Assembly (NCBI GenBank): GCA_963709845.1
Contig: CAVPXV010000006.1
Location: 644,098 to 708,097, forward strand
DNA from: an uncultured Thermoleophilia bacterium
Lineage (GTDB): Bacteria; Actinomycetota; Thermoleophilia; UBA2241
Reading direction: 5' to 3'
DNA length: 64,000 nucleotides
The notes under the pieces were generated by a model. The model was not told the origin of the DNA and ran no database searches. It was given only the letters and a program-made list of their open reading frames with translations. The position numbers and the translations under genes are program-made. This document shows positions 40,461-60,170 of this stretch, one piece after another (positions within the stretch are counted from its first letter, which is position 1; the number at the start of each line of letters is the position of its first letter).

Positions 40461-40811
40461 TCAGGCGTCGCGAGGTTCCGGGTACGGGATGGCGACCAGC
40501 ATCGAGGCGGGGGAGTTGGTGCGGTTCTCGATCGCGCGCGACTCGTTGGGGGCAAGGTAGCAGGAGTCCCACTTCTTCAGCGTCACCTCGCCCTCGGGTG
40601 TGATCACCGTGACCTCACCCTCGAGCACGAAGTAGACCTTCTCGACGGGCGTGGCGTCCTCGAAGGCGCCGCCCTTGGGCAGGAAGTGAGAGAGGCCCAT
40701 CCAGAAGTTGCGCGTCTTGCTGACCTCGAAGCCCTGCAGGCGGAGTCCGAAACACTCGTGATGCTTGGGCGCCTCGTACGGGGGGGCCTCGTCGTAGCGG
40801 GTGACTTCCAT
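40461..40811 (-). CDS. Cupin-domain protein (116 aa)
   Basis: ATG at 40811 with GGAAGGAG. Small beta-barrel cupin motifs. The start lies 2 nt after the cyclase stop. Confidence 0.7.
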   Translation of the reverse strand: MEVTRYDEAPPYEAPKHHECFGLRLQGFEVSKTRNFWMGLSHFLPKGGAFEDATPVEKVYFVLEGEVTVITPEGEVTLKKWDSCYLAPNESRAIENRTNSPASMLVAIPYPEPRDA

Positions 40812-40813
40812 GC

Positions 40814-41629: not shown

Positions 41630-41670
41630 AGCTCCTCCAGGGGTCGCGGATGGCCGTGGCGTTGTCCGTA

Positions 41671-41692
41671 ATGCGGAACGGGCTTGCCGTAT
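41671..41692. promoter_or_regulatory. Candidate operator ATGCGG-N10-CCGTAT (recurrent motif, site 1) upstream of the cyclase-cupin-BKACE operon
   Basis: GTAATGCGGAACGGGCTTGCCGTATCG read directly. Shares the ATGCGG/CCGCAT arms with the sites at 49843 and 56647. Confidence 0.3.
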
Positions 41693-41725
41693 CGTGGATA
41701 CGCTACTCGCGCCGCGAAGGCGGTG

Positions 41726-42547: not shown

Positions 42548-42571
42548 ACACGTACGACGAGCGCCGCGGCG

Positions 42572-43513: not shown

Positions 43514-43539
43514 GGTCAGCCTCCTCGAGGTGAAGCGGC

Positions 43540-44334: not shown

Positions 44335-44542
44335 CGCACTTCTCCTCTCGCATGGGACCGGCGCCGCTGAAAGCGCCCAGCCCGCCCGGCGCACGTCTCG
44401 GGACCCGACGAGGAGGCGTCAGGCCGGAACGGCGACGGCGAGTCACGACGCACAGAGGCGCTCGTCGTGAGGGCTCTCCGGCCGCCCGGGCGGCTGTCCG
44501 CCCACCCCTCCCGAACCGCCGATCGCACGCCCGATAACCGCG

Positions 44543-44571
44543 ATGCGGAACAGCGGTTCCATCATGCGAAC
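44543..44571. promoter_or_regulatory. Direct repeat ATGCGGAAC...ATGCGAAC with an embedded GGAAC-AGCG-GTTCC palindrome (recurrent motif, site 2) in the 245-bp gap upstream of the SDR/hbd operon
   Basis: Read directly; related half-sites to the other ATGCGG sites. Confidence 0.25.
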
Positions 44572-44640
44572 ACTATTGCAGGTGCCCCGGGGCAGGTCAA
44601 GCATCCTCGAGAGGCCCGCGGCGGCGGCCGTGGAGACCCC

Positions 44641-45402
44641 TCAGACGCGAGCCGTGAGACCGCCGTCGACGTAGAGGATCTGGCCGGTCACGAAGCCGGC
44701 CGCGGGCGACGCGAGGAAGAGCACCGGGCCGACCACGTCGGCGGCCTCCGCCCAACGGCCCATGGGGATGCTGGCGCGCAGGGCGGCCGCGAACGCCTCG
44801 TCGGCAAGGACGGCGCGCGTCAGGTCGGTCTCGACGAACGTCGGCGCGACGGCGTTGACGCGGATGCCGAACTCCGCCCACTGCGCCGCCAGCGAGCGCG
44901 TCATCGAGTCGACCGCACCCTTGCTGGCGGAGTACTCCGTCTGGCCGAACGGCGCGCCGTAGCGGCCGCGCACGGAGGACAGATTGACGATAGCGCCGCC
45001 TCCGCGGCGGGCCATGAGCGCGCCGACCGCCTGACAACAGAGGAACGTGCCGGTGGCGTTGACGTCGAGGATGCGCCGCCACTCCGCCGGCGGCAGGGCC
45101 TCGGCGCGCACACGGACGGTGACACCGGCGGCGTTGACGAGGATGTCCACGCCGCCGAGGCCGGCCTCGGCCTCCTCGGCCATGGCGCGCACGGACGCTT
45201 CGTCGGTGACGTCGACGCCCAAGGCGAGAGCGGCACCGCCGGCGCCCTCCAGCTCGCGGGCCAGCGCCGCCGCGCGCGTCGCGTCGGCGTCCGCCACGGC
45301 GACGGCCGCTCCATGCGCCGCCAGGCCGCGCGCCACGGCAGCTCCCAGACCCCCGGCGCCGACGACGATGGCGCGCCGACCGCCGATGTCGAACTCGTTC
45401 AT
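44641..45402 (-). CDS. SDR-family oxidoreductase
   Basis: GGGAGGA RBS. VVGAGGLG...YSASKGAV SDR motifs. Confidence 0.8.
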   Translation of the reverse strand: MNEFDIGGRRAIVVGAGGLGAAVARGLAAHGAAVAVADADATRAAALARELEGAGGAALALGVDVTDEASVRAMAEEAEAGLGGVDILVNAAGVTVRVRAEALPPAEWRRILDVNATGTFLCCQAVGALMARRGGGAIVNLSSVRGRYGAPFGQTEYSASKGAVDSMTRSLAAQWAEFGIRVNAVAPTFVETDLTRAVLADEAFAAALRASIPMGRWAEAADVVGPVLFLASPAAGFVTGQILYVDGGLTARV

Positions 45403-45452: not shown

Positions 45453-46187
45453 TCAGGGGCCAGTCAGCTCGGCCCGGATCTCGTCCCTCGTCCTCAGCAG
45501 CGCCGCCGTCACGTCCCGCTCGCTCTCGGCGAAGCGGGCGGCCGGCATGGGCACGGCGATCGAGGCGGCGCTCCCGTCCACGTCGGTGACCGCCACGGCG
45601 ACGGCGCAGATCCCCTGCCGCAGCTCCTCGCGCTCGTAGCCGAGGCCGGTGGAGCGCACGTCCTCGAGCTCGCGCAGGAGCTCATCGCGCGTCTTGGCAG
45701 CGCCGTCGCGCGAGGGATCCAGCTTCTGCGGCAGGCGCTTGCGGAGCTCCTCGAGGGTCAGCTGCGCGAGCAGGACCTTGCCGCTCGCCATCCTGTAGGC
45801 GGGGAAGCTCGCGCCGACGCGCGCGATCGCCATGAGCTCGCGCCGCGGGGCGGGGTGCTGCGCCAGGAAGATCACCCTCGAGCCGTCCAGCACCGCCAGG
45901 TCGACGGTCTCGTTGAGATCAAGCGAGAGACGCTCGAGATACGGCTCCAGGACGGCGCCGAGGTCGCGACGGCCGAGGACCGCCAGACGCAGGAGGCCGC
46001 GGCCGAGCTCGCGCCGTCCGGTCTCGCCGTCGACGAACACGTATCCCACTTGTTCCAGGGCGGTGCAGATGCGATGCACGGTGGTCTTCGGCAGGCCGGT
46101 CTGAGCGGCGAGCTGGGCGAGGCTTTGGCCGCCGCGGGACTCCGCGAGGGCGGCGAGGATCGCCGCCGCCCTCGTGATCACCTGCAT
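45453..46187 (-). CDS. IclR-family transcriptional regulator
   Basis: ATG at 46187 with GGAAGGGG. HTH (QSLAQLAAQTGLPKTTVHRICTAL) plus an effector domain. This is the C-terminal part of the spurious 669-aa tracked ORF. Confidence 0.8.
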   Translation of the reverse strand: MQVITRAAAILAALAESRGGQSLAQLAAQTGLPKTTVHRICTALEQVGYVFVDGETGRRELGRGLLRLAVLGRRDLGAVLEPYLERLSLDLNETVDLAVLDGSRVIFLAQHPAPRRELMAIARVGASFPAYRMASGKVLLAQLTLEELRKRLPQKLDPSRDGAAKTRDELLRELEDVRSTGLGYEREELRQGICAVAVAVTDVDGSAASIAVPMPAARFAESERDVTAALLRTRDEIRAELTGP

Positions 46188-46324
46188 CCCGCCCCTTCCG
46201 GCTTCGCCCTCGCCCTCTCGCACCATGTCCGGACCCTCCTCGGCCGCAGCCGGTGAGACCGTTTCGGCGGCGGCGAGCCTCGCGTGGCGGACCGGCGCCC
46301 GCCGCGACCGGCCGCCGGGCGCCG

Positions 46325-47159
46325 CTACGCCTTCTCCAGGACCACCGTTCCGGCGTTGACGCTCGCCTCGGCCGTGACCTTCATCCCGGCCGGCCTGTAC
46401 CCGGGCGCCTCGACCCTGATCGTGTACTCCTTGCCCGGCTCGAGGCGGTCGACGAGCGCCTCCCCGAAGACGTCGCCGGTCGCCGCCCCGACGACCGCTC
46501 CGTCGAGCTCCACGGTGAGCGTGGCGCCGGCACCGCACTCGTCGGTGTCGCCGTAGACGACGCGTGCAGGCGACGAAGACCTTGTCCCAGCGGTGGAGGT
46601 TCCTGTAGTACACGCGGGGCTTGGTGCCGAGGCCGTCGCGGTAGCGCTCGAGGCCCTCGTCGGCGACGCGGCGCGCGAACTCCGCGTCGTCGGCCAGCAC
46701 CAGCTTGATGGCATCGGTCGGGCACACCTGGGAGCAGCGCGTCTCGGTCCAGCCGTCGTCGAGGAGGTGGGCACAGCCCGTGCACTTCTGCGCCAGCTGC
46801 TTCTCCTCGTTCCAGTAGATGGCGCCGTAGGGGCAGCTGGCGACGATCTCGCGACGCCCGGCGGCCTTGACGGGGTCGATGATCACGAGGCCGTCGTCAC
46901 GCCTGTAGACGGCGCCGTCGGCGGTGAGGCACGGCGCCTCGTCGCAGTGCATGCAGGGCATCGGCAGGTAGGCGGTCTGCACGATCGGGTACTGGCCGCG
47001 CTCCTTGCGCTTGATGTTCATCCAGCGGTGGCCGTGCCAGGGCTGGGCCGCCGAGTAGGGCGGGAAGTCGTTGTCGACGAACTCGTCCTTGTCGGCCAGG
47101 AAGCAGTCGTTGCAGTCGTGGCAGCGGGCGACGTCGATGATCAGGTGCCACTTCTTCAT
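46325..47159 (-). CDS. Copy 1 of the iron-sulfur beta subunit (3x[4Fe-4S] ferredoxin plus a C-terminal beta-barrel domain) of a pyrogallol-transhydroxylase-like molybdoenzyme, with one frameshift near 46570
   Basis: ATG at 47159 (GGGAGGG) overlapping the alpha-1 stop (ATGA). MKKWHLIIDVARCHDCNDC...CMHCDEAPC...CTGCAHLLDDGWTETRC. C-terminal VVYGDTDECGAGATLTVELDG...TVVLEKA is in a second frame (ORF 46325..46774). Paralog of 59343..60170. Confidence 0.75.
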
Positions 47160-49766
47160 TTGGCCTCGCCCTCCCATTTCTCGACCTGGACCAGACAGGA
47201 GTTGTTGGACATCGCCGTCGAGGTCGGGGTGATGAACCGCTTGTTGGTGAGGATGTTGACGCAGCCGGCGATGTCGGCGGACTCGCCCGGCTCGCCGACC
47301 GGCAGGTAGTCGGCGCAGCGACTCGTAGGAGTGCACCGTGCCGGGGGCCACGCGCTCGGTGAGCTGCGCCGACAGGATGACGGCGCCGCGGTCGTTGAAG
47401 GCGCGGATGAGGTCGCCTTCGGCGATGCCCCGCGCCTCCGCGTCCTTGCTGTTCAGCCGCATGACCCAGTACTAGTGCCCGTCGTCGTGCAGGATGCGGT
47501 GGTCCTTGACCTCGTTGAGCCAGCTCCCTTTGGAGTCGCCCATGGTGTGGAAGCTGAAGCGCGGGTGCGGGCTCACCATCTGCAGCGGGTACCTGTCGTA
47601 GAGATCCGTGGTGTGGTGGCCCTCCCAGCGACGGGATGTACTGCGGGCCCATCGCCGGGCGCTCGGGGTCGACCACGTCGAGCTCGAGGTGCTTGAGCGC
47701 CGTGCTCACGAACTCGATCTTGCCCGACGCCGTCTGCAGACCCTTGAGGCCGACGGTGTCGCCCGGGCGCCGGGCCCCAGTCCGGCGTGTCGCGCTTGCG
47801 GCCCTCGGCGAACCAGCGCATGGCCGGCGTGCTCTTGTGGTCCTCGGGGAAGGGCACGACGAAGTAGCCCTTCTTCTCGAACTCCTCCCAGGTGATGTGC
47901 TTGGGCAGGTCGGTGGCGGCGAAGTAGAGCTTGCACCAGTCGAGCTCGGTGCGGCCGCCGTCGGTGTAGAGGTGGCCGATGCCCATGCGGTCGGCAGACG
48001 GCCGCGAAGATGTCGTAGTCCGACTTGCTCTCGCCGAGCGGCTCGATGCACTTCTTCTGGAAGACGATGACCCGCTGGTTCATCTGGTGGTAGTTGTCGG
48101 GGATGTAGCCCGAGCAGTTGCCGAACTCGCTCATGTCCCAGCGCTCGAAGTTGGTGCAGGCCGGCAGGATGACGTCGGCGAACTTGGCCTCGCCCTCCAT
48201 CCAGATCGACTGGTTGACGACGAAGCTGACCTTGCCCTCCTGGTAGGCCTTCACGTAGCGGTTCGTCTGCTGCATGGTGCCGAAGAACGAACCGCCGTAG
48301 CGCCAGTACATCTCGATGAAGGGATAGCCCGGCGCCGGATACTGGTACTTCTGCATCTGGCTCTCGATCGACGAGCCGCAGAAGCCTTTGCCGCGCCACT
48401 CGAAGCGCTCGTGCATCATCGCCTCAGGGATGCGGAGGCGCGGGATCGCCTGACCCTCGGTGGAGTCGTGCGGGTTCACCGTGATGTGGCGACCCCGACC
48501 CGTGGGGGAACATGCGGTAGGTCCAGCGGTAGGCGGCCGCCGACTTCTCGGGATCGCCGGAGATGCCGCCCTCGGCGTAGCCGGGGAAGATGAAGGACTC
48601 GTCCGCCGGCGCGCCCTGTGAGGTGCCCCAGATGTTGCTGCCCGGCTTGCCGTAGCCCTGCATCGCCGCGAGCGCGATCATCGTGCGGGCCCACTCGTTG
48701 CCCGTGGCCGAGCGGCAGGCGCCGCCCCAGCCGCCGAGGCCGCCGGCGGCGAGCATGGTCTTCTTGGCGCCCCACTCGCGGGCCAGGGCGCGGATCTCGC
48801 CGGGCCGGGACGCCGGACTCGCGCTCCGCCCACTCCGGCGTCTTGGGCACGTTGTCGGTCTTGCCGAGGACGTAGTCCTTCCACTCGTCGAAGCCGTTGG
48901 TCCGCGCCGCGACGTACTCCTTGTCGTACAGGTCCTCGGCCAGCCACGTGTGGGCGATGGCGAGCCCGAAGGCGACGTCGGTGCCGAGCCGCGGCGCGAA
49001 CCACTTGTCGGAGAAGAGCTCGGCCGTGTGGTTGAAGTACGGGTCGACGAACACCATCTTGATGCCGAGCTCTTTCATCCAGTAGCGGCGGCAGGTGCTC
49101 TCGAAGGCCGAGTAGATGCCGCCGCCCGTCGTCTCGGGGTCGGCCGACCAGAACACGATCATCTCGGTGTGCTTGAGCGCGTCCTCCAGCAGGTCCCACT
49201 GCTCGGGGATGCCGAGGCGGTGGCTGTTGCCCCACATGGGGATGCCGCCCCAGTGCCAGCCCTCCCAGCTGTCGGGGTTGTGGGCGCAGTGGCTGAAGCC
49301 CATGAGGTTGAGGAAGCGGTTGTAGGCGCTGTGGCGGTAGCCGATGTTGCCCCACAGATGGTGGGAGCTCTCGGTCGTCATGATGCTGCCGGGCCCGACC
49401 TCGCGATGGCAGCGCTCCACCTCGTCGGCGATGATGTCGAGGGCCGCCTCCCAGCTGATGGGCTCGTAGCCGGAGACGCCGCGGTTGCGGATGTTGCGGG
49501 CGCCCTTGTGGTCGAAGTCGACGCGCTTGAGCGGCGTGAGAATGCGCTTCGGGCGAGTAGACCAACGAGCGCTGGGCCTGTGCGTGCGGCGAAAGCGTCG
49601 TGCGGCGCGGCGGCGTGAACTTGCGGCCCCGCGCCTCGATGACCCAGTCGCCCTTGTCGCCTTCGTCGAGGTCGATGGGGATCATGCGCACGATCTTGCC
49701 GTCCTCGACGTCGACGAACAATGGGCCGCCGGTCGTACAGTTCGTGAGCCTCTCCATGTGACCCAT
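47156..49766 (-). pseudogene. Copy 1 of the large (molybdopterin) subunit of a pyrogallol-phloroglucinol transhydroxylase-like DMSO-reductase-family enzyme, split over at least 7 frames by single-base frameshifts
   Basis: ATG at 49766 with GGAGG-N9, as for copy 2. Segments appear in order across ORFs 48678..49997, 48476..49420, 48424..48756, 47706..48479, 47573..47986, 46897..48399 and 45453..47462. From memory these match the Pelobacter transhydroxylase alpha subunit blocks (TTGGPLFV.V.DGKI, HHLWGNIGYRHS, NPDSWEGWHWGG, AAGGLGGWGGACR, FPGYAEGGISGD, ILPACTNFERWD, CIEP.GES.SDY). Confidence 0.75.
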
Positions 49767-49842
49767 ACTCTCTACCTCCGCTCGCAGCTCGAGGATGGCG
49801 GCCGCGCACGCGATGCGCGCGGGTCTCCCGGTGGTATCCACG

Positions 49843-49863
49843 ATGCGGACGACATGCCCGCAT
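49843..49863. promoter_or_regulatory. Candidate operator ATGCGG-N9-CCGCAT (recurrent motif, site 3) in the divergent alpha-1 / mobAB intergenic region
   Basis: CACGATGCGGACGACATGCCCGCATTTCG read directly. Confidence 0.3.
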
Positions 49864-49969
49864 TTCGGGAATCCTACCGTGGAGGGCGTGGGTGTCAACT
49901 CGCCGACGCCGTTGTCGGCGCCGTCCCCGGCGGCGCGCGGGGCGGCGCTTGGGCTACACTGCCGGAGCC

Positions 49970-51076
49970 GTGTCAAGTGACCAGCCCACAAGCCCACGCC
50001 GCGTCCGCGTCGGCGTCCTGCTCGCCGGCGGGGAGGCGAGGCGCATGGGGCGCGACAAGCGCCTCTTGCGTCTCGCCGGCGCCACGCTGCTCGAGCGCAA
50101 CCTCGCCTTCCTCCGCGACCTGTTCCCGACGGTCGCGCTGTCGCTGCGCGACGCCGACCAGGTCCCCGCCTCGCTGCCGGCCGGCGTCGAGGTCGTGCCC
50201 GACGTGGTGACCGGCTCGCCGCTGGCGGGCCTGGCCTCGGTCCTGGCCCGCTACCAGGAGCCCATCTTCGCGCTCGCCGCAGATCTGGCCTTCAGCGAGC
50301 GCGGCGCGGTCGAGCAGGTGCTGGACGCCTTCCGCGACGTCGACGTCGCGCTGCCGATCGTCGGCGACCACCTCGAGCCGTTGCATGCGGTGTACGGCCC
50401 GGCTTGCGCGGCGCGCATCGAGGAGTTGCTGGAACGGGGCGCGCACAGCATCCTCGACCTGCTCCCCGAGGTGCGCGTGAGGACGGTACGCTTCCCGAGC
50501 GCGGCGCCATTCTTCAACGTGAACACGCCGGACGACTGGCGCGAGGCGCGCCGCCGCGAGCAGGCAGCGGCGCGCGGCGGCCGCCCGGCGGTGCTCGGCG
50601 TCGTCGGCCACCCGGACAGCGGCAAGACGACGCTGATCGAGCGCCTGATCCCCGAGCTCGTCCGTCTCGGCCTCAAGGTCGCGACGGTCAAGAGCGTCGC
50701 GCGCTTCGACATCGACACCCCGGGCAAGGACTCCTGGCGCCACGGCCAGGCCGGAGCGGAGGCGTACGCGGTGGCGTCCGCGAGCAAGCTCGCGTTCGTC
50801 ACCAGCCTGCGCGCCGAGATGGCGCTGGTGCAGCTCGTGGAGCGCTACTTCTCCGAGTACGATATCGTCCTCTGCGAGGGCTACCGGCGCGAGGCGCCGC
50901 ATGTCGTCGAGGTCTTCCGCGCCGCGAGCGAGCATGCGGAGACGCAGGTGCCGCGAGGCGAGCTGCTCGCCCTCGTGACCGATACCGACCTGCCGCACCG
51001 GCACCGCTTCGCGCTCGACGACGCCGCCGGCCTCGCCGCCTTCCTCATCGGCGAACTCGGGCTCGCCCGCGCCTAG
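49970..51076 (+). CDS. mobA: Fused MobA-MobB (molybdenum cofactor guanylyltransferase plus MGD biosynthesis adapter GTPase-like protein)
   Basis: GTG at 49970; the start is uncertain. N-terminal GVLLAGGEARRMG MobA fold. C-terminal VVGHPDSGKTTLIERL P-loop MobB domain highly similar to the stand-alone MobB at 55884. Confidence 0.8.
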   Translation: MSSDQPTSPRRVRVGVLLAGGEARRMGRDKRLLRLAGATLLERNLAFLRDLFPTVALSLRDADQVPASLPAGVEVVPDVVTGSPLAGLASVLARYQEPIFALAADLAFSERGAVEQVLDAFRDVDVALPIVGDHLEPLHAVYGPACAARIEELLERGAHSILDLLPEVRVRTVRFPSAAPFFNVNTPDDWREARRREQAAARGGRPAVLGVVGHPDSGKTTLIERLIPELVRLGLKVATVKSVARFDIDTPGKDSWRHGQAGAEAYAVASASKLAFVTSLRAEMALVQLVERYFSEYDIVLCEGYRREAPHVVEVFRAASEHAETQVPRGELLALVTDTDLPHRHRFALDDAAGLAAFLIGELGLARA

Positions 51077-51227
51077 CGGCAGCACGCACGGCCGGCCGGC
51101 CCCGGCCCGGCGCGCCCCGGGCGTTGACCCGCCGGCCGGCTCTCGCACTATCATGGAAGCAGACCAGAGCACGGGCCGCGTCGCGCCCCGTGACGATCGA
51201 CACCCACGCGAGAGGAGCGCCGAGCCC

Positions 51228-52384
51228 ATGTCCGGAGGAGACCAGAAGCCCGTCACGTCATCGAGTCCCGTGCCCGCGGCGCAGCCCGACCCCGCCGATC
51301 CCGGCGTCTACAGGGGACCGCTGCACCAGACCGCCGCGACGACCGCCACCGACTACTGGAACGACTCCTGCTCCGTCGAGGAGCTGACCTACGCCATCGC
51401 GCGCGGTGCCGTCGGCGCCACCACCAACCCGACGATCGTCGGCGACGTGCTGAAGAAGGAGATGCACCTCTGGCGCGAGCGCATCGCGGCAGATCATCGC
51501 CGAGAACCCGGCCTGGACCGAGGACGAGGTCACCTGGCGCCTCATCGAGGAGATGGCGATACGCGGCGCCGAACTGCTGCTCCCGGTCTTCGCGCGCGAA
51601 GGCGGCATGAAGGGGCGCCTCTCGATCCAGACCGACCCGCGCTTCTACCGCGACGCCGCGCGCATCGCCGCGCAGGCCGTGCGCTTCAGCAGCCTCGCCG
51701 CGAACATGCAGGTCAAGATCCCCGCGACCGGCGCCGGCGTGCAGGCGATCGAGGAGGCGACGGCGGCCGGCGTCAACGATCAACGCCACCGTGTGCTTCA
51801 CCGTGCCGCAGGCGCTCGCCGTGGCCGAGGCGGTGGAGCGTGGGCTGCGGCGCCGCGAGGCGGCCGGCGAGGACGTCGCCGCGATGACGCCGGTGTGCAC
51901 GCTCATGGTCGGCCGCCTCGACGACTGGATGCAGGCGCTGGTCAAGCGCGACGGCGTGGTCGCGACCCCGGGCATCGAGCACTGGGCCGGCGTCGCCTGC
52001 ATGAAGAAGGCCTACGGCATCTTGCGCGAGCGTGGCTACCGCACGCGCCTGCTGGCCGCGGCCTACCGCCACCACCTGCACTGGACCGAGTTCATCGGCG
52101 GCGACGTCGTGCTCACCATCCCCTACGCCTGGCAGCGCCTCTTCAACGAGTCCGACCTCGCGGTCGTGCCGCGCATGGACGAGCCGGTGCCGGCGGCGGT
52201 CGTCGACGAGCTCTACCGCCGCTTCCCCGACTTCCGGCGCGCCTACGACGCGGACGGGATGAGCCCTGAGGAGTTCGACGCCTACGGCGCCACGGCGCGC
52301 ACGCTGCGCGGCTTCATCGCCTCCTACCACGACCTCGTGGCCGTGGTCCGTGACTTCATGCTGCCGAATCCAGACGTAAAGTAG
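51228..52384 (+). CDS. tal: Transaldolase-family protein with two +1 frameshifts (about 51488 and 51779)
   Basis: ATG at 51228. GATTNPTIVGD...WRERI in frame 0. QIIAENPAW...GRLSIQTDPRFY...VKIPATGAGVQAIEE in frame +1. INATVCFTVPQALAVAEAVE...MVGRLDDW in frame +2. Removing a single G at each site gives a continuous protein. Confidence 0.75.
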
Positions 52385-52649
52385 CGTCCCGCGCGGACGG
52401 CCGCGCCGACGCCAGATCCATCATCCATCAGTCGCTCAGCGCGCGCGGCGGCCGGCCGCGTCCCGGCCGCCGCGCGGATTGACGGCTGTGCTACCCTTGC
52501 GCTGTCCGACTCCAAGCCCTCCGCCCTAAGGCGATAGCTACGGGCGCTGGGCCGTACCATGGATAGACCATGGGGCAGCGCGCGAGCGCTGTCGTGGGCC
52601 CGCGGCGGAAACGCCCGGACCTCCCCGTGCTTGGAAAGGAGCAAGGGAC

Positions 52650-53474
52650 ATGAACGCAGGTCCGACCCTGCGCGCTGACGGCGCGCACCCCAAGAAGCCC
52701 AGCCTGCGGCTTGCCGTCGCTCTCGCGCTGCTGCTCGCCGCGCTGGCGATAGTCCTGGCCGCGGGCTGTGGCGGCCAGTCGAGCGGCAGCTCGGGCACCT
52801 CGACCAAGATCACCGTCTTCGGCGCCGCCTCGCTGACCGACGCCTTCACCAAGCTGGGGAGCGACTATACGGCCGCTCATCCGGGCGTGACGGTGGCCTT
52901 CAACTTCGCCGGCAGCCAGGACCTCGTGGCCCAGCTCCAGCAGGGCGCGCCAGCCGACGTGCTGGCCACGGCCGACACCAAGACCATGGACCAGGTCGCG
53001 ACCCTGGTCGGCACGCCGCAGGTCTTCGCGCGCAACAAGCTCGAGATCGCCGTCCCGCCCGGCAACCCGAAGGACATCAAGAGCTTGAAGGATCTTGCCG
53101 ACCCCGGTCTCAAGGTGGTCCTCGCGGCCCCGCAGGTACCGGCCGGGAAGTACGCGCAGGAGATCCTCGGCAAGGCCGGCGTCACCGTGAATCCGGTCTC
53201 GCTCGAGGACAGCGTCAAGGGAGTGGTCACCAAGGTCTCGCTGGGCGAGGCCGACGCCGGCATCGTCTACGTCACCGATATCCAGGCGGCCGGCGGCAAG
53301 CTCGAAGGCGTCGTCATCCCGGACACGCTGAACGTCATCGCCACCTACCCGATCGCCGTCGTGAAGGCGAGCAAGAACGCCCAGGACGCGCAGGCGTTCG
53401 TGGACCTGGTCATGTCCAGCCAGGGCCAGCAGGTGCTGCGCAGCTTCGGCTTCCTGCCGCCGAGCGCGCCATGA
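52650..53474 (+). CDS. modA: Molybdate ABC transporter substrate-binding lipoprotein
   Basis: Signal peptide plus LAAGCGG lipobox. ModA fold motifs (ITVFGAASLTDAF, VLATAD, GIVYVTD). Confidence 0.85.
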   Translation: MNAGPTLRADGAHPKKPSLRLAVALALLLAALAIVLAAGCGGQSSGSSGTSTKITVFGAASLTDAFTKLGSDYTAAHPGVTVAFNFAGSQDLVAQLQQGAPADVLATADTKTMDQVATLVGTPQVFARNKLEIAVPPGNPKDIKSLKDLADPGLKVVLAAPQVPAGKYAQEILGKAGVTVNPVSLEDSVKGVVTKVSLGEADAGIVYVTDIQAAGGKLEGVVIPDTLNVIATYPIAVVKASKNAQDAQAFVDLVMSSQGQQVLRSFGFLPPSAP

Positions 53475-53791
53475 CGCCACACGTCGCTGCGAGCGCCCTT
53501 GACGTGCGCCCGGCAGAGGCTGACCAGTCCGCGGCCGCAAGGCGCGACGGCGTCCAGGCCAGCGAGCGCGCGACCGCGGTGCTCCGTTGCGTCTCGGCGG
53601 AGACGCACGGCCTCACAGTGGTGGAGATCGCGCGCAGCCTCGGCTTGCCGCGTTCCACAACGCACCGCATCGTCGAGGCGCTACGCAGCGAGGGCTTCGT
53701 GCGTAGGGACGCGGCGCGTGGTCATCGGGCAGACCCTTTCGGGACTCGTCTGCATCCGCCGCTCCGCCGAAGAGGGCGAGCCGGTCTGTGA
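53471..53791 (+). pseudogene. Possible remnant of an IclR-family regulator (HTH domain only) in the 525-bp modA-modB spacer
   Basis: ERATAVLRCVSAETHGLTVVEIARSLGLPRSTTHRIVEALRSEGFVRRD aligns with the HTH segments of the three intact IclR genes in this window. No effector domain follows in any frame. Confidence 0.3.
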
Positions 53792-53998
53792 CGTGCGGTC
53801 GCGAACAATCGCGACTTCCGTCCGCTCGCGTGGGCGCCAGGCGGCCGATCCGGTGACCGACCAGGTGACTCCGGGGCCCCCGCCGCGAGGCGGCGGCGCG
53901 GGCAAAGGCCTATCGGTCGTCGCCGGCGACTCCCTCACGAGCGGCCGGGCCGAGGCCACGCCCTGGGCGAGCCCGGCTGAAGACGGCGCGCCGCGACT

Positions 53999-54791
53999 CA
54001 TGCGTCGCGGCAGCGGCGGTGCGCCGTTCGGCTTTGTGCCGCTCGCCGTGGTCGCGTTCGCGTTCCTGACGCTTCCGCTCATCGCCCTCCTCGTCCGTGC
54101 CCCGTGGCGCGACCTGCCCGGCGACCTGACGGCGCCCGGCGTTCTCACCGCCCTGCGTCTCTCGCTCGTGTGCTCGCTGGGAGCGCTCGCTCTCTCGTTG
54201 GTCTTCGGCGTCCCGCTCGCCTGGCTGCTCGCGCGCGTGCCGTTTCGCGGCCGCAACATCGTGCGCGCTCTGGTGCTCCTGCCCATGGTCCTGCCGCCCG
54301 TCGTCGGCGGCGTCGCACTGCTCCTCGCCTTCGGCCGCCACGGCCTCGCCGGGCAGTGGCTCGACAGGGTCTTCGGCGTCACGCTGCCGTTCTCGACCGC
54401 TGGGGCCATGCTCGCCGAGACGTTCGTCGCGATGCCGTTCCTCGTCATCACCGTCGAGGCTGGCATCCGCAGCATGGACCGGCGCTACGAGGACGCCGCC
54501 GCGACGCTTGGCGCCGGCCGCTGGCGCACGTTCCGCCGCGTGACGCTGCCGCTGATCGCACCCGCCCTCGCCGCCGGCGGCGCCCTCTGCTGGGCGCGGG
54601 CCCTCGGAGAGTTCGGTGCGACGATCACCTTCGCCGGCAACCTGCCGGGAACCACGCAGACGATGCCGCTGGCGGTGTACCTCGCCCTGCAGAACAACGC
54701 CGACGCGGCGATCACCCTCAGCCTCGTGATGCTGGCGATCTCGCTGGCGGTCCTGGTGGCGCTGCGCGGCCGCTGGTTCCCTTCGCGATGA
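53999..54791 (+). CDS. modB: Molybdate ABC transporter permease
   Basis: ATG at 53999, inside tracked ORF 53499..54791 whose first 165 codons are non-coding. EAA-loop region ARALGEFGATITFAGN and 5-6 TM segments. Confidence 0.85.
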
Positions 54792-54828
54792 GCGCCCGCG
54801 CGACGAGGCCGGCAGGGGGAGCCCCCCT

Positions 54829-55887
54829 GTGAGCCTCGAGGCGACCATCGGCCTGCGCAAGGGCGCCCTCGACCTTGACGTCGAGCTCGAGGTGTCGAGC
54901 AACGGCGTCGTCGTGCTGCTTGGCCCGAACGCCGCCGGCAAGACGACGCTGCTCCGGGCGCTCGCCGGCCTCGTGCCGCTCGAGCGCGGCCGCGTCGTCC
55001 TCGACGGCGTCGTGCTCGACGACCCGGCGGGCGGCGTGCGCGTCCCCACCGAACGGCGGCCGATCGGCGTCGTCTTCCAGGACTACCTCCTCTTCCCGCA
55101 CCTGTCGGTGCTCGACAACGTGGCCTTCGGGCCTCGGTCGCGCGGCGCCGGGCGCGCCGCCGCGCGGGAGCGCGCCCTCGCGTTGCTCGACCGCGTGGGG
55201 CTGGCCGACTGCGCCGCCGAGAGGCCGCGGGCTCTCTCCGGCGGCCAGGCGCAGCGCGTGGCCCTGGCGCGGGCGCTGGCCACCGACCCTCGCCTCCTGC
55301 TCCTCGACGAGCCGCTCGCGGCCATGGACGCCGGCGCGCGCGCCGAGCTGCGCCGCGGCCTCGGCCGGCACCTCGCCGCGTTTTCCGGGACCTGCCTCGT
55401 GATCACGCACGACCCGATCGAGGCGATGACGCTCGGCGACCAGCTCGTCGTCCTGGAAGCCGGGCGCATCGTGCAGTCCGGGACTCCAAGCGAGCTCTCC
55501 TCGCACCCGCGCTCGCGCTACGTGGCCGACCTTCTCGGCCTGAACCTCTACCGCGGCCGCCCCGAGCAGCGCTCCATCGTGCTCCCGAGCGGCCGGCGCC
55601 TGATCGCCGCCGATCCCGTGCCACAGGGAGGCGAAGTGTTCGCCGTCATCCCTCCGCGGGCGGTCTCCTTGCACCGCACCATGCCTGAAGGCTCGCCGAG
55701 AAACGTCTGGGAGGGAACGGTCGGCGAGCTCGATGTTGCGGGAGATCACGTGCGCGTGCACGTGGGCGGCGACCTGCCGGTCATCGCCGAGGTCACGCCG
55801 GCGGCAGTGGCCGCCCTGCACCTGGGAGAAGGCGGGCCCGTCTTCGTCTCGGTCAAGGCGCTGGAGGTCGAGGTCTACCCCGCATGA
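54829..55887 (+). CDS. modC: Molybdate ABC transporter ATP-binding protein with a C-terminal TOBE domain
   Basis: GTG start. Walker A GPNAAGKTT, LSGGQAQR and Walker B LLLLDEP. C-terminal Mop/TOBE-like 110 aa. Confidence 0.85.
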   Translation: MSLEATIGLRKGALDLDVELEVSSNGVVVLLGPNAAGKTTLLRALAGLVPLERGRVVLDGVVLDDPAGGVRVPTERRPIGVVFQDYLLFPHLSVLDNVAFGPRSRGAGRAAARERALALLDRVGLADCAAERPRALSGGQAQRVALARALATDPRLLLLDEPLAAMDAGARAELRRGLGRHLAAFSGTCLVITHDPIEAMTLGDQLVVLEAGRIVQSGTPSELSSHPRSRYVADLLGLNLYRGRPEQRSIVLPSGRRLIAADPVPQGGEVFAVIPPRAVSLHRTMPEGSPRNVWEGTVGELDVAGDHVRVHVGGDLPVIAEVTPAAVAALHLGEGGPVFVSVKALEVEVYPA

Positions 55888-56516
55888 ACCCTGCGTGGGG
55901 CGCCGGCATTGGGTTTCCCGGCGGGGCACACTCCCGTACCATCTTCGCCATGGACGCCATCGAGCACGCTCGCGGAGGGGCCGACGAGGGGCCGGCCGAG
56001 GCCGGGCCGGCAAGACAGCCGGCCCTCGTGGCCGTCGTCGGCAAGAGCGATTCGGGCAAGACGACTCTGATCGAGAAGGTCGTGCCCGAGCTGGTGAAGC
56101 TCGGCCTGCGCGTCGGGACGGTCAAGCACGACGCGCACAGCTTCGAGATCGACCACCCGGGCAAGGACTCCTGGCGGCACGGCCAAGCCGGCGCCCACGC
56201 CTACGCCATCGCCTCGCCCCAGCGCCTCGCCTTCATCACGCGGCTGGACGGCGAGCTGCCGCTGGTCGACATCGCACGGCGGTTCTTCGCCGGCTTCGAC
56301 CTGGTGGTGGCGGAGGGCTACAAGCGCACGGCACCGCACCGCGTCGAGCTCTTCCGCAGCGGCGCCGGCCACGCCGAGCCCCTCTGCGGCCCCGGCGAGG
56401 CGATCGCGCTCGTCACCGACGCGCCGCTCGCGCACGAGCACCGCTTCGGGCTCGAGGACGCCGCCGGCCTGGCGAGCTTCCTCGCCCTCCGCCTGGACTC
56501 GCTGCGCCAGTACTAG
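55884..56516 (+). CDS. mobB: Stand-alone MobB (MGD biosynthesis adapter protein)
   Basis: The ATG overlaps the modC stop (ATGA). VVGKSDSGKTTLIEKV P-loop. Paralog of the MobB half of 49970..51076. Confidence 0.8.
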   Translation: MNPAWGAGIGFPGGAHSRTIFAMDAIEHARGGADEGPAEAGPARQPALVAVVGKSDSGKTTLIEKVVPELVKLGLRVGTVKHDAHSFEIDHPGKDSWRHGQAGAHAYAIASPQRLAFITRLDGELPLVDIARRFFAGFDLVVAEGYKRTAPHRVELFRSGAGHAEPLCGPGEAIALVTDAPLAHEHRFGLEDAAGLASFLALRLDSLRQY

Positions 56517-56610
56517 CGCGGCCGGGCCCCGTCTGGTCCTGTCTCAGGTCCCCCGCCCCGGCGGATCCCCGCCGCCGCAACGGCCGCGCGCGACTCGCCC
56601 AGCCCTACAC

Positions 56611-56639
56611 TTGACACTACCCGGCGAGGGATGGAGTAT
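56611..56639 (+). promoter_or_regulatory. Candidate promoter for the intact molybdoenzyme operon: -35 TTGACA, 17-nt spacer, -10 GAGTAT
   Basis: Hexamers read directly, about 105 nt upstream of the alpha-2 ATG and immediately followed by the palindromic site at 56647. Confidence 0.3.
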
Positions 56640-56646
56640 GCCCGTA

Positions 56647-56668
56647 ATGCGGTTCAGGTAATCCGCAT
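56647..56668. promoter_or_regulatory. Candidate operator ATGCGG-N10-CCGCAT (recurrent motif, site 4) just downstream of the candidate promoter for alpha-2
   Basis: GTAATGCGGTTCAGGTAATCCGCATCG read directly; perfect 6-bp arms plus GTAAT direct repeats. Confidence 0.35.
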
Positions 56669-56745
56669 CGCGGACAGTACCCCGTGAGCCGCGCTCTGCT
56701 CGAGCCGCGGCCGCCCCAGCCGAGCCAGATGCGGAGGTCAGCAGT

Positions 56746-59343
56746 ATGGCGGAGGACAGAACCAAGTCGGGAGCCAGCGGCGAGAAGACGCTGATCCGGG
56801 ATATCAGCTTCTGCGGCGTGCCGGAGAACGGCTCCAACGCGTCGATGGTGGACGTCAAGGACGGCAAGATCGTCCGCATCCGGCCGATGCACTACGACTG
56901 GAAATACAAGAAGGAAGACCTGAACCCCTGGAAGATGGAAGTGCGGGGCAGCACCTTCGAGCCCAGCATGAAGACCCTCATCCCTCCGTACAGCCTTGCG
57001 TACAAGAAACGCGTGTACTCGCCGGCGCGCATCCGCTACCCGATGATGCGCGTGGACTTCGACCCCGACGGCGAGCGCAACCCGCAGAACCGCGGCGTGA
57101 GCAAGTTCAAGCGCATCTCCTGGGACCGGGCGCTCGACGTCATCACCGGCGAGATGAACCGCATCAAGGAGAAGTACGGTCCCACCGCCCTCCTCTATCA
57201 GTGTGACCAGCACGGCGAGAACAAGGTCGTGCAGGCCTGCCACGGCGCCGGCCGCAAGCTGCTGCGCCAGTGGGGCGGCTTCACGCTGCAGATGCGCCAG
57301 CCCGACAGCTGGGAAGGCTGGTGGTGGGGCAGCAAGCACTTCTGGGGCTGCGAGCCCGTCGGCCAGGGGAAGCAGAGCAACCTGCTCTGGGACATCGCCA
57401 AGAACGCCGAGCTGCTCCTCTTCTGGGGCTGCGACCAGGAGACGACGCCCTGGGGCTGGCAGGGTCAGCTGCCGAGCCGCCTCAGCTACTGGTGGAGCGA
57501 GCTCGGCATCAAGCAGATCTACGTGTGCCCGGACCTCAACTACGCGGCCGCCGTGCACGCCGACCGCTGGATCCCGGTGCTGCCCAACACCGACGCCGCC
57601 CTCTACCTCGCCATCTGCTACCAGTGGTTCAAGGACGGCACCTACGACAAGGAGTACCTCGCCACGCACGCGGTGGGCGTCGAGAAGTTCGAGGCCTACG
57701 TCATGGGCGATGAAGACGGCGTCAAGAAGACGCCGGAGTGGGCGGCGGCGATCTGCGGGGTCCCCTCCCGCACCATCAAGGCCTTGGCCAAGGAGTGGGC
57801 GAGCAAGCGCACCACCGTGGTCATCGGCAACGGCGGGCCCGGCATCCGCGGCCCCTACGCCACCGAGCCGGCGCGCCTGCAGTGCATCTGCCTCGCCATG
57901 CAGGGCCTCGGCAAGCCGGGCGTCAACCAGGCCAAGATGATCGAGTGGGGTCTGTTCGACAAGCCCGACCAGTACGCCCAGCCCAAGCCGCTGCGCGTGC
58001 CGAACCTCCGCAAGGCCTACACCGGCGGCCACCCCGACGAGACCAATCACCCGTCGTTCCTCCCCAAGACGTACGTGCCCAAGGGCATCCTCGAGGGGGA
58101 GTGCGACTGGTGGGGCTGCGAGTCCGAGACCGCCGACCGCGCCAATCAGTTCGTGCACTACAGATACCCCGCCGACGGCTGCTCCAAGATCCACATGGTG
58201 TGGACCGACTCGCCCTCGTGGATCACCTGCTGGAACGGCGGCAACGACTACGTCAGAGCCATGCGCCACCCGGACATCGAGTTCATGTTCGCCCAGCATC
58301 CCTGGCTCGAGAACGACTGCCTGATGGCCGACATCATCCTGCCCGTGAACACCAAGCTCGAAGAGGACGACATCGCCGGCGACATCTTCAGCGGCCAGTA
58401 CAACCTGCTCTACCCGGAGCACAAGTGCATCGAGCCGGTGGGCGAGAGCTACAGCGACTACGAGATCGCCGTCATGATCGCCGAGCGCCTCGGCCTCAAG
58501 GAGGCGTATACCGGCGGCAAGTCCATCCCCGAGCTCATCAGACAAGGCTATGAGACCTCGCGCTGCGACGATCTCATCAGCTGGGAGGAGCTCAACGAGA
58601 AGGGCTACTACGCCGTGCCCACGGCCGATGGCTGGGAAGACGTGCCCGCCGGCTTCTACAACTTCTACAAGGACCCGGAGAAGTACCCGCTCACCACGCC
58701 GACCGGGAAGCTCGAGTTCGAGGCCACGGGTCTGGCCGACAACTTCCCCGACGACCTCGAGCGTCCGCCGGTCCCCAAGTGGGTCGCCCAGGGGATCAGC
58801 CACGAGGAGACCATCGGCACCAAGCGCTCCGAGAAGTATCCGCTGCTCGTGTGCTCCAACCACCCGCGCTGGAGCGTGCACTCCCAGCACGAAGACATCA
58901 CCTGGCTGCGCGAGATCAAGACCTGCAAGGTCACGGGCCCCGACGGCTACCAGTACCACCCCGTGTGGCTGAACCCGGCGGAGGCCGAGAGGCGCGGCAT
59001 CCGCCACGGCGACATCGTGTCGATCTTCAACGAGCGCGGCACCGTGCTCGGCGGTGCCTACGTCACCGAGCGCATCATGCCCGGCGTGGTCTACATCGAC
59101 CACGGCGCCAAGTGGGACCCCATCGTCCCCGGCGAGATCGACCGCGGCGGCGCGATCAACACCATCGTGCCGCGCAACACCACCTCCAAGAACGCCGTCG
59201 GTCACGCCGTGAGCGGCTTCCTCGTCGACATCGAGAAGACCGACATGGAGGAGCTCAAGCGCAAGTATCCGGAGGCCTTCGAGAAGCCGTTCCACCCGTG
59301 TGCCGGCCCCGGCCTCGAAGCCTGCGTCTGGGGGAGGGCGTGA
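56746..59343 (+). CDS. Copy 2 (intact) of the large molybdopterin subunit of a pyrogallol-phloroglucinol transhydroxylase-like DMSO-reductase-family enzyme (865 aa); no N-terminal Cys motif for an FS0 cluster
   Basis: ATG with GGAGG-N9. Single uninterrupted ORF. N-terminus lacks CxxCxxxC. Conserved blocks shared with copy 1 and, from memory, with the Pelobacter AthL alpha subunit (DGKIVRIRPM, SWEGWWWG, CIEPVGESYSDYEI ...). Confidence 0.9.
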   Translation: MAEDRTKSGASGEKTLIRDISFCGVPENGSNASMVDVKDGKIVRIRPMHYDWKYKKEDLNPWKMEVRGSTFEPSMKTLIPPYSLAYKKRVYSPARIRYPMMRVDFDPDGERNPQNRGVSKFKRISWDRALDVITGEMNRIKEKYGPTALLYQCDQHGENKVVQACHGAGRKLLRQWGGFTLQMRQPDSWEGWWWGSKHFWGCEPVGQGKQSNLLWDIAKNAELLLFWGCDQETTPWGWQGQLPSRLSYWWSELGIKQIYVCPDLNYAAAVHADRWIPVLPNTDAALYLAICYQWFKDGTYDKEYLATHAVGVEKFEAYVMGDEDGVKKTPEWAAAICGVPSRTIKALAKEWASKRTTVVIGNGGPGIRGPYATEPARLQCICLAMQGLGKPGVNQAKMIEWGLFDKPDQYAQPKPLRVPNLRKAYTGGHPDETNHPSFLPKTYVPKGILEGECDWWGCESETADRANQFVHYRYPADGCSKIHMVWTDSPSWITCWNGGNDYVRAMRHPDIEFMFAQHPWLENDCLMADIILPVNTKLEEDDIAGDIFSGQYNLLYPEHKCIEPVGESYSDYEIAVMIAERLGLKEAYTGGKSIPELIRQGYETSRCDDLISWEELNEKGYYAVPTADGWEDVPAGFYNFYKDPEKYPLTTPTGKLEFEATGLADNFPDDLERPPVPKWVAQGISHEETIGTKRSEKYPLLVCSNHPRWSVHSQHEDITWLREIKTCKVTGPDGYQYHPVWLNPAEAERRGIRHGDIVSIFNERGTVLGGAYVTERIMPGVVYIDHGAKWDPIVPGEIDRGGAINTIVPRNTTSKNAVGHAVSGFLVDIEKTDMEELKRKYPEAFEKPFHPCAGPGLEACVWGRA

Positions 59344-60170
59344 TGGGCAAGGTCCTCGTCATCGACCTCAACATCTGCAACGGCTGCTACAACTGCCAGG
59401 TGGCCTGCAAGGACGAGCACGTCGGCAACGACTGGTCACCTGTCGCCAGGCCGCAGCCCGACACGGGCCAGTTCTGGAACAAGGTCACCGACCTCGAGCG
59501 CGGCCAGGTGCCCAAGGTCAAGGTCACCTACATGCACAGCATCTGCCAGCACTGCGAGGAGGCGCCCTGCATCCCGGCCTGCAACGTCGACGCCATCTAT
59601 CGGCGCGACGACGGGGCCGTGATCATCGACCCCGACCGGTGCCGTGGCAACCAGCTGTGCCTCGAGGCGTGTCCCTTCGAGGACGTGATCTACTTCAACG
59701 ACTCGCTCAACATCGCCCAGAAGTGCACCTTCTGCGCGCACCTCCTGGACGACGGCTGGAGTGAGCCGCGCTGCGTCGACGCCTGCCCCACGGGCGCCTT
59801 CACGTTCGGCGACGAGGAGGACCCCGCGATGAAGGAGCTCGTCGCCAGGGCGGAGCCGCTCAAGCCCCACCTCGACGTCAAGCCGCGCGTCTTCTACGTC
59901 GGCCTGCCCAAGCCGTTCATCGCCGGCGCCGTGTTCGAGCCAGATACCGACGAGTGCACGGACGACGCCAGAGTCACGGCCACGAAGGTCGGCCACGGCA
60001 AGGTGTACGAGACGTCCACCGACAGCTACGGCGACTTCTGGCTCCGCGACGTGGAGCCCGGCGAGTACACCGTCCTCGTCGAGAAGGACGGCTACCTTTC
60101 GCAGAAGATGGGCCCCGTCGACGCGAGCAAGGACGTCAACGTCGGCGACATCGCCGTCTGGAAGGCGTGA
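59343..60170 (+). CDS. Copy 2 (intact) of the iron-sulfur beta subunit: three Cys4 ferredoxin motifs plus a C-terminal 90-aa beta-barrel (transthyretin/carboxypeptidase-regulatory-like) domain
   Basis: The ATG overlaps the alpha-2 stop (TGATG). CNGCYNCQVAC, CQHCEEAPCIPAC and CTFCAHLLDDGWSEPRCVDACP. C-terminal DECTDDARVTATKVGHGKVYETSTDSYGDFWLRDVEPGEYTVLVEKDGY. Confidence 0.85.
   Translation: MGKVLVIDLNICNGCYNCQVACKDEHVGNDWSPVARPQPDTGQFWNKVTDLERGQVPKVKVTYMHSICQHCEEAPCIPACNVDAIYRRDDGAVIIDPDRCRGNQLCLEACPFEDVIYFNDSLNIAQKCTFCAHLLDDGWSEPRCVDACPTGAFTFGDEEDPAMKELVARAEPLKPHLDVKPRVFYVGLPKPFIAGAVFEPDTDECTDDARVTATKVGHGKVYETSTDSYGDFWLRDVEPGEYTVLVEKDGYLSQKMGPVDASKDVNVGDIAVWKA

Follow-up and report, generated by a model that had tools for sequence, protein, structure and literature searches.

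Two transhydroxylase-like molybdoenzyme modules in a probable island for anaerobic trihydroxybenzene breakdown in a soil Thermoleophilia bacterium

The stretch of DNA analysed in this work (the window; 64,000 nt, G+C content 66-74%) originates from a soil actinobacterium of the class Thermoleophilia and carries two gene pairs whose products are related to AthL/BthL, the pyrogallol-phloroglucinol transhydroxylase from Pelobacter acidigallici. Module alpha1/beta1 is intact and lies on the plus strand, with the large-subunit gene alpha1 at 56746-59343 (865 aa) and the gene for a ferredoxin-like small subunit, beta1, at 59343-60170 (275 aa). Module alpha2/beta2 lies on the minus strand, with the large-subunit gene alpha2 at 47156-49766 and beta2, which encodes a BthL-type small subunit with three cluster sites, at 46325-47159; both of its genes are interrupted. 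Using the intact pair as query, tblastn located both modules where an earlier note had placed them, and the beta2/alpha2 reading was found spread over all three minus-strand frames. A metagenome contig of the Joint Genome Institute (JGI) with the same arrangement (L001), in which alpha1 is 95% identical and the second pair is intact, served as reference for frame correction. The genes of each module overlap, as TGATG in alpha1/beta1 and as ATGA in alpha2/beta2, which agrees with the translational coupling described before. The ribosome-binding site of both modules reads GGAGG-N8-ATG and thus has a spacer of eight rather than nine nucleotides as originally given.

Structural relatives were searched for with phmmer in the PDB, domains were assigned with Pfam, and curated families with score cut-offs were taken from NCBIfam. 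The assignment of both large subunits to the transhydroxylase (PgtL/RhL) branch of the dimethyl sulfoxide (DMSO) reductase superfamily, rather than to its respiratory reductases, was borne out, as AthL (4v4c_A) is the best PDB match of both. It matched the intact alpha2 orthologue with 1210 bits over residues 1-865 of 867, followed by a trimethylamine N-oxide (TMAO) reductase with 263 bits. For alpha1, the AthL score was 470 bits (E = 1.5e-139) compared with 243 bits for DMSO reductase, and acetylene hydratase (2e7z) was matched at E = 1e-10 only. Pfam recognised PF21423 (AhtL-like first domain), PF00384 and PF01568 in alpha1. Subunit beta1 matched 4v4c_B best (171 bits) and ends in a CarboxypepD_reg barrel (PF13620). 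Neither alpha contains the FS0 motif CxxCxxxC or a twin-arginine signal, and no Cys is encoded in the 28 in-frame codons upstream of alpha1, so the reported absence of FS0 holds even for an extended N-terminus. Scanning the surroundings of alpha1/beta1 for promoters and terminators gave no informative result. JGI automatic names suggest a BisC/DorA/TorA-like S- or N-oxide reductase, and the best NCBIfam match of alpha1 is indeed bisC_fam, with source names that include 'trimethylamine-N-oxide reductase'. We nevertheless regard this function as highly improbable for alpha1/beta1: the bisC_fam score of 327 bits is far under the cut-off of 1017 (dmsA_ynfE, 313 versus 778, and TorA, 280 versus 909, also remain below theirs), in the PDB, the AthL score is double that of any DMSO or TMAO reductase, alpha1/beta1 has the AhtL-like first domain together with a BthL-like beta with C-terminal barrel, and the genomic context described below is one of aromatic catabolism.

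Subunit alpha1 is 39% identical to AthL and 36% to alpha2, while alpha2 and AthL share 60% identity. The close resemblance to AthL claimed for both proteins therefore applies to alpha2 but not to alpha1, and an identity of 36% makes the two alphas ancient paralogues and not the product of a recent duplication. Likewise, the AthL blocks MWGN.GYRHS, DSWEGWHWGG and GGLGGWGGACR, ascribed to both copies, occur in alpha2 only; their counterparts in alpha1 are CDQHGENKVVQACHG, DSWEGWWWGS and GNGGPGIRGPY. For a family comparison, 120 alpha open reading frames (ORFs) with a minimum length of 700 aa were taken from the window and 81 related loci, and the AthL reference and corrected alpha2 were added. 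The resulting 122 sequences split into two clean families, termed A1-type (alpha1-like; n = 89) and AthL-type (alpha2-like including AthL; n = 33, that is 32 plus the reference). Mean identity of the A1-type sequences is 79% within the family and 38% to AthL.

In AthL, Ser175 is the Mo ligand, His144, Asp174 and Tyr404 belong to the catalytic core, and Tyr152, Arg153, Trp354, Phe468 and Tyr560 shape the pocket. Residues H144, D174, S175, W176, Y404 and R359 (AthL numbering) are conserved in both families; S175 and H144/D174/Y404 are kept throughout the AthL-type family and in 88-89 of the 89 A1-type sequences. Both window copies have them as well, including the Ser equivalent that had been singled out for checking. 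The pocket positions diverged in the A1-type family: Y152 is replaced by A or G, R153 by C or P and F468 by S, and the loops carrying W354 and Y560 are deleted. Alpha1 itself has A, C and S at the three substituted positions and lacks the other two, whereas corrected alpha2 matches AthL at all five and keeps every pocket residue examined. On sequence grounds, alpha1/beta1 belongs to a distinct, highly conserved sister family of the transhydroxylase, and alpha2/beta2 is the true AthL/BthL counterpart.

The AthL-type genes form two subclades that share approximately 80% and 60% identity with the Pelobacter enzyme. Both subclades plus an A1-type gene, and hence three paralogue classes, are present in some loci (L041 at 853-3480 and 4647-7424; L037, L042, L043, L054, L061 and L064). 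AthL-type proteins of Actinomycetes metagenome-assembled genomes (MAGs) match the deltaproteobacterial enzyme at 80-83%, which suggests horizontal transfer.

The small subunits were described as 3x[4Fe-4S] ferredoxins; this fits beta2 but not beta1, which has 15 conserved Cys. All 15, which in beta1 are arranged as CxxCxxCxxxC / CxxCx4CxxxC / CxxNxxCxxxCP / CxxCx12CxxxC, are invariant in the 76 A1-type betas examined. Every one of these 76 has C80, C100 and C106 (group III, CxxNxxCxxxCP), which are replaced by A, A and I/L in BthL and the BthL-type betas; beta2 has no Cys at the equivalent positions. One FS2 ligand varies among BthL-type betas (D in 26, C in 7 and F in 4 sequences), and beta2 carries Asp in place of one Cys ligand. 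The 26 Asp and 4 Phe replacements were observed in BthL-type betas of Actinomycetota. The C80/C100/C106 triad resembles the FS4 site of NarH, in which the second Cys of group III is likewise replaced. Because of this resemblance, beta1 is predicted to bind a fourth, three-Cys-ligated distal cluster in addition to the BthL set. Our main argument for electron transfer by alpha1/beta1 is that the full cluster chain is strictly kept in the A1-type family while it degenerates in the non-redox transhydroxylase family; the conserved A1-type family is thus probably redox-competent.

Database searches with the A1-type family yielded more than 4500 matching proteins. The best 120 are 82-95% identical and belong to Thermoleophilia, other Actinomycetota, Dehalococcoidia, Aminicenantes and others; identities of 79-86% were found for A1-type genes in loci of Desulfobacteraceae, Geopsychrobacteraceae, Acidobacteriota and gut Oscillospiraceae. 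An exact look-up of alpha1 in a contig index returned no match, and a second protein search seeded with a Ruthenibacterium-labelled copy retrieved no cultured or named relatives. The nearest other groups in an exhaustive search of 1.84 billion representatives are 42-49% identical to alpha1 and uncharacterised. Several of these relatives outside the A1-type family (P0133, P0135, P0136, P0138-P0141, P0143 and P0145-P0147) possess twin-arginine signals (SRRDFL) and often long Thr/Val-rich linkers, and appear to be exported. P0134, which is 54% identical to alpha1, is devoid of a twin-arginine signal and heads a cluster of proteins from Nitrososphaeria archaea.

Frameshifts were called from a GC-frame Viterbi path, tblastn with intact homologues and alignment to L001; the Viterbi path recovered all known shifts. 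Relative to L001, alpha2/beta2 contains eight single-base insertions and no deletions, seven of them in alpha2 (near 49553, 48798, 48489, 47996, 47764, 47631 and 47318) and one in beta2 (near 46561). After removal of the inserted bases, alpha2 and beta2 are 87% and 82-83% identical to their L001 counterparts. Single-base insertions were also found at 51490 and 51778 in a transaldolase-family gene, and in the genes of an ATP-binding cassette (ABC) importer there are two frame changes in a permease (near 35683 and 35981 by tblastn, in agreement with the Viterbi path), two in an ATPase and one in the binding protein (near 38033). In addition, a +1 insertion near 29735 (CTCGAC[G]GAC) breaks argS, the arginyl-tRNA synthetase gene (28290-30036, minus strand), so that the N-terminal domain (ORF 29530-30036) and the catalytic and DALR domains (28290-29882) are read in different frames. 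Fifteen of the 16 indels are +1 insertions; their sequence context revealed no homopolymer and no convincing shared motif.

With argS an essential gene is disrupted, which points to assembly indel errors, and we are inclined to view the alpha2/beta2 frameshifts as artefacts of assembly or as very recent changes, and not as long-term decay. The corrected alpha2 deviates at one of 196 near-invariant positions, which is the median of the intact sequences, and some eight indels accompanied by about as many excess substitutions look like local sequence noise rather than accumulated mutations. Genuine pseudogenization would mean that alpha2/beta2, the transaldolase gene and several transporter genes are dead, and that pyrogallol isomerisation and uptake have been lost with only the alpha1/beta1 route kept. 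The clustering of the shifts argues for such a real inactivation: eight fall within the 3.4 kb of alpha2/beta2, two in the transaldolase gene and about five in transporter genes, and none in the approximately 19 kb of other island genes. An in-frame TAG of alpha2 (47474-47472) persists after correction, branch omega of the window alpha2 is 0.40-0.50 (most intact orthologues have values of 0.16-0.24, and alpha1 of 0.11-0.23), and the ratio of synonymous to nonsynonymous changes at otherwise invariant codons is 6:6 in the alpha2 lineage versus 98:16 in the pooled sequences. Natural decay, however, gives mixed indels and not almost exclusively single-base insertions of the kind also present in argS; related nanopore MAGs have sporadic single frameshifts in the alpha2-type gene, and an intact orthologue (L019) reaches an omega of 0.45 as well. 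Inactivation thus is a serious possibility, although not the outcome we expect.

The remaining genes of the island were assigned with Pfam unless stated otherwise. The four protein families of a phloroglucinol pathway are clustered on the minus strand at 39443-45402, beside alpha2/beta2. They comprise a BKACE-family enzyme (39443-40555; PF05853, E = 1.4e-90) as candidate triacetate acetoacetate-lyase, a 'cyclase'-family metal hydrolase (40814-41629; PF04199) as candidate dihydrophloroglucinol cyclohydrolase, a member of the 3-hydroxyacyl-CoA dehydrogenase (3HCDH) family (42572-43501; PF02737 and PF00725) as candidate (S)-3-hydroxy-5-oxohexanoate dehydrogenase, and two short-chain dehydrogenases/reductases (SDRs; 43540-44394 and 44641-45402, adh_short), one of which is the candidate phloroglucinol reductase. 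The same families make up the phloroglucinol cluster of Clostridium scatologenes, where PGR, DPGC, TfD and TAL are an SDR, a cyclase, a 3-hydroxyacyl-CoA dehydrogenase and a BKACE, respectively (PMC10470551). The best PDB matches of the window cyclase are isatin hydrolases, and the nearest solved relative of the BKACE is Kce; isatin hydrolase and Kce are also the published nearest solved relatives of DPGC and BKACE (PMC10470551). PDB matches of the SDRs were generic members of their family.

Two genes for IclR-family regulators (41726-42547 and 45453-46328) are located within and next to this cluster, and a third (33234-34169; IclR_C and HTH_IclR) is adjoined at the island edge by an FMN_red gene (32547-33233); all three regulator genes are on the minus strand. 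An aromatic-acid-type ABC importer is encoded between them on the same strand. It consists of two branched-chain-type permeases (34250-36212; homologues of BPD_transp_2), the second of which (35317-36212) is frameshifted, two ATPases (36233-37638; Pfam and tblastn), of which 36233-36883 is frameshifted and 36880-37638 intact, and a frameshifted periplasmic binding protein with a twin-arginine signal match (37702-39208; Peripla_BP_6). The plus strand between the two modules encodes a MobA-MobB fusion for synthesis of the bis-molybdopterin guanine dinucleotide (bis-MGD) cofactor (49892-51076), the split transaldolase (51228-52384; also by L001 alignment), the molybdate uptake proteins ModA (52650-53474), ModB (about 53841-54791) and ModC (54829-55887), and a second MobB (55884-56516). 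A split transketolase, a creatininase-family protein and a xylose-isomerase-like triosephosphate isomerase (TIM) barrel are encoded after beta1. All flanking genes listed in the earlier note were therefore found.

Their value as evidence is a different matter. Neighbourhoods were counted from clustered ORFs of the 81 related genome loci. Transketolase, creatininase and isomerase genes accompany the A1-type gene in only 6-8 loci, all from close Thermoleophilia relatives, and are displaced and inverted in L024; a transaldolase homologue occurs at this position in L001 only, where a MOT1-type molybdate transporter replaces modABC. As they are not conserved neighbours, transketolase, creatininase and isomerase were rejected as partners of alpha1. 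Catabolism of a cyclitol had been proposed as an alternative to that of a polyhydroxylated aromatic compound, and if both modules acted on a polyol, cyclitol or sugar-derived substrate together with these enzymes, the adjacency of the four genes in the window would be accounted for. Given how seldom they accompany alpha1 and that they have moved in L024, this reading fails, and we assign it a very small chance. The aromatic half of the proposal was upheld by the SDR, cyclase, 3HCDH and BKACE genes at 39.4-45.4 kb, outside the region from which it had been made.

Phloroglucinol-pathway families were detected in 10-20 of the 81 loci, the ABC importer in approximately 20, and an IclR gene directly upstream of A1 in 27. 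A full-length AthL-type gene lies within 10 kb of the A1-type gene in 29 loci, and Chloroflexi MAGs with two 'pyrogallol transhydroxylase' operons in one genome had been described in 2013 (PMC3971608); the co-occurrence of both types is thus not unusual, contrary to what had been supposed. The order common to many Actinomycetota and Chloroflexota is BKACE-SDR-3HCDH-cyclase-AthL-beta-(FMN_red)-IclR-A1-beta-(TatD-like)-importer-IclR, and in one Desulfobacteraceae contig AthL-beta-A1-beta forms a tight operon. An AthL-type alpha is missing from three loci in which the pathway is found together with A1 and an orphan BthL-type beta. The orphan genes (L032, 8159-9037; L033, 8190-8861; L045, 7747-8628) lie between the cyclase gene and IclR-A1-beta, and may be deletion remnants or encode a second partner for A1.

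An FMN_red/flavodoxin-like gene between the AthL-type and A1 modules was observed in L042 (8471-9031) and 10 other loci, and a TatD/amidohydrolase-like gene just downstream of the A1 beta gene in L081 (17555-18355) and about 10 other loci. The former could encode an electron partner and the latter a decarboxylase or hydrolase for the A1 pathway. The window has no orthologue of either gene at those positions; its FMN_red gene at 32547-33233 was rejected as an orthologue of the inter-module gene owing to an identity of 29%.

A palindrome, ATGCGG-N9-CCGCAT, is located at 49843-49863 in the divergent alpha2/mobAB promoter region, and a copy with a spacer of ten nucleotides (ATGCGG-N10-CCGCAT) at 56647-56668, 78 nt upstream of the alpha1 start. 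These are the two exact matches to ATGCGG-N9/10-CCGCAT in the window, where 0.07 were expected. In 20 related loci the palindrome is found at matching positions; its distance upstream of A1-type genes is conserved, and in 7 related loci it lies upstream of the AthL-type gene. Two further intergenic copies have one mismatch, at 41671-41692 upstream of the cyclase-BKACE genes and at 39422-39443 upstream of the importer genes. When two mismatches were allowed, 8 sites were found in the window versus 5.7 expected, which is overall not above chance; the sites reported are the exact ones and the two intergenic ones with one mismatch. The palindrome is a probable IclR operator that would define a regulon.

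The shared operator, the common catalytic core, the location next to phloroglucinol genes and the three loci with the pathway in which A1 is the sole alpha would all be expected if alpha1/beta1 were a second, iso-functional pyrogallol-phloroglucinol transhydroxylase. We consider this improbable. Y152, R153, W354, F468 and Y560 are substituted or deleted across the A1-type family, its beta keeps the fourth cluster site that BthL lacks, and both types are found together in at least 29 loci, where they at times share an operon. This coexistence argues for different jobs.

We therefore favour, with some reservation, a reading of the window from 33 to 60 kb as an IclR-controlled island for anaerobic trihydroxybenzene breakdown, in which alpha1/beta1 would be a redox-capable sister module of the transhydroxylase. 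Several observations weigh against this reading. The most serious is that alpha1 has neither FS0 nor a Cys relay, so a redox role of alpha1/beta1 is not assured; the invariant A1-specific Cys of alpha are scattered and form no motif able to pass electrons from Mo to beta, and for this reason a substitute for FS0 among them was rejected. No island protein, the BKACE and the other pathway proteins included, passes a curated NCBIfam cut-off (the BKACE scored 278 against a cut-off of 382 for Kce and 173 against 430 for 3,5-dioxohexanoate transferase), and the assignment of the phloroglucinol enzymes consequently rests on family membership and synteny. Database names of A1-type proteins are all generic and include 'trimethylamine-N-oxide reductase'. 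In Firmicutes, Acidobacteriota and Desulfuromonadales, A1 is accompanied by IclR only, with or without the importer, and phloroglucinol genes are absent within 10 kb. The clustered shifts and the substitution pattern of alpha2 described above add to these points.

According to the favoured reading, alpha2/beta2 would convert pyrogallol to phloroglucinol by Mo-mediated hydroxyl transfer, and phloroglucinol would then be reduced, ring-opened and cleaved to acetoacetate and acetyl-CoA. Subunits alpha1/beta1 would carry out Mo-dependent hydroxyl chemistry on another, probably bulkier or carboxylated phenolic compound that feeds the same funnel. Unlike the transhydroxylase, they would exchange electrons with a partner and hence be no pure isomerase but a hydroxylase or dehydroxylase. 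More speculatively, and with doubts of our own, we suggest that alpha1/beta1 might represent an undescribed class of anaerobic, electron-transferring phenol hydroxylase/dehydroxylase working alongside the transhydroxylase. Such an enzyme could possibly make or recycle the 1,2,3,5-tetrahydroxybenzene co-substrate, whose origin in vivo has to our knowledge never been explained. Alternatively, it might turn a carboxylated or substituted polyphenol, for example gallate, into an intermediate of the phloroglucinol pathway. If true, this would add a major unrecognised step to anoxic polyphenol turnover, given a conservation of approximately 80% from Thermoleophilia to Dehalococcoidia, Desulfobacteraceae, Acidobacteriota and gut Oscillospiraceae.

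Outside the island, the window encodes formate-tetrahydrofolate ligase, FolD, cyclodeaminase-family and NuoEF-like proteins. The genes for the NuoF-like, NuoE-like, FolD, formiminotransferase-cyclodeaminase-family and formate-tetrahydrofolate ligase proteins stand in a row on the minus strand (7169-13222) that resembles the methyl branch of the Wood-Ljungdahl pathway, and this gene content is consistent with an anaerobic lifestyle. The lowest-G+C stretch of the window (0.63-0.66) contains three consecutive ORFs of 270, 327 and 571 aa (2859-6442, minus strand), for which no confident Pfam match was obtained and only a weak one, to AA_permease_2, for the largest.

Anaerobic breakdown of trihydroxybenzenes derived from tannins and flavonoids is relevant to how peat and sediments store carbon (the 'enzyme latch' debate) and to polyphenol metabolism in the gut. 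We know of only one enzyme of the transhydroxylase Mo family for which structure and mechanism are available. Metagenomic annotations as 'pyrogallol hydroxytransferase' can now be separated into true AthL-type enzymes and a more conserved and more frequent sister family, whose different pocket and complete Fe-S chain lead to predictions on substrate range, the fourth cluster and control by IclR and its operator. The clustered +1 insertions of this assembly, one of them in an essential gene, call for pseudogene predictions not to be taken at face value.

In the literature, no paper was found that separates the A1-type family from AthL or notes its four-cluster beta. Compared with AthL/BthL (4V4C-4V4E), alpha2/beta2 is alike in its end-to-end identity of 60%, the Ser ligand, the catalytic and pocket residues, the three cluster sites and C-terminal barrel of beta2, and the lack of FS0 and a signal peptide; it differs in being interrupted here and in the Asp that replaces one Cys ligand of beta2. 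Module alpha1/beta1 shares with AthL/BthL the fold, the domain set, the Ser ligand, the His/Asp/Tyr core and the organisation as a two-subunit operon with overlapping genes, but alpha1 is only 39% identical, with Y152, R153 and F468 replaced and the W354 and Y560 loops deleted, and beta1 has three additional invariant Cys for the predicted fourth site.

Resorcinol hydroxylase (RhL/RhS) and 3,5-dihydroxybenzoate hydroxylase (DbhL/DbhS) are redox-active, water-dependent phenol hydroxylases. Their chemistry is of the kind proposed for alpha1/beta1, whereas they feed the oxidative hydroxyhydroquinone pathway of nitrate reducers and not the phloroglucinol pathway. RhL/RhS of Azoarcus (Aromatoleum) anaerobium and DbhL/DbhS of Thauera aromatica AR-1 belong to the same RhL/PgtL branch, which is recognised as a small family within the Ser-ligated MopB enzymes (PMC10100899). 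The island resembles the C. scatologenes phloroglucinol cluster in that the same four families are clustered and their nearest solved relatives agree; here, genes for two Mo enzymes, IclR regulators and an ABC importer adjoin them, and the window BKACE remains under the NCBIfam cut-offs. The likeness described is one of family.

The four-group Cys pattern of beta1 resembles that of NarH, EbdB and the beta subunits of type II DMSO reductases, which have four clusters including a distal [3Fe-4S] cluster; for beta1 the cluster type is a prediction. In contrast to these subunits, beta1 is considerably shorter and ends in the BthL-type barrel, and no gene for a membrane-anchor or haem subunit lies nearby. 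DorA, TorA and BisC likewise have Ser-ligated bis-MGD and no FS0 and provide the next-best PDB and NCBIfam matches to alpha1, but they reach half the AthL score and possess neither a beta subunit nor the AhtL-like first domain. The gut catechol dehydroxylases (Dadh, Cldh and others) form a clade beside acetylene hydratase and away from the transhydroxylase (PMC7028382), and alpha1 stands apart from them, as it matches acetylene hydratase far less well than it matches AthL (E = 1e-10 versus 1.5e-139).

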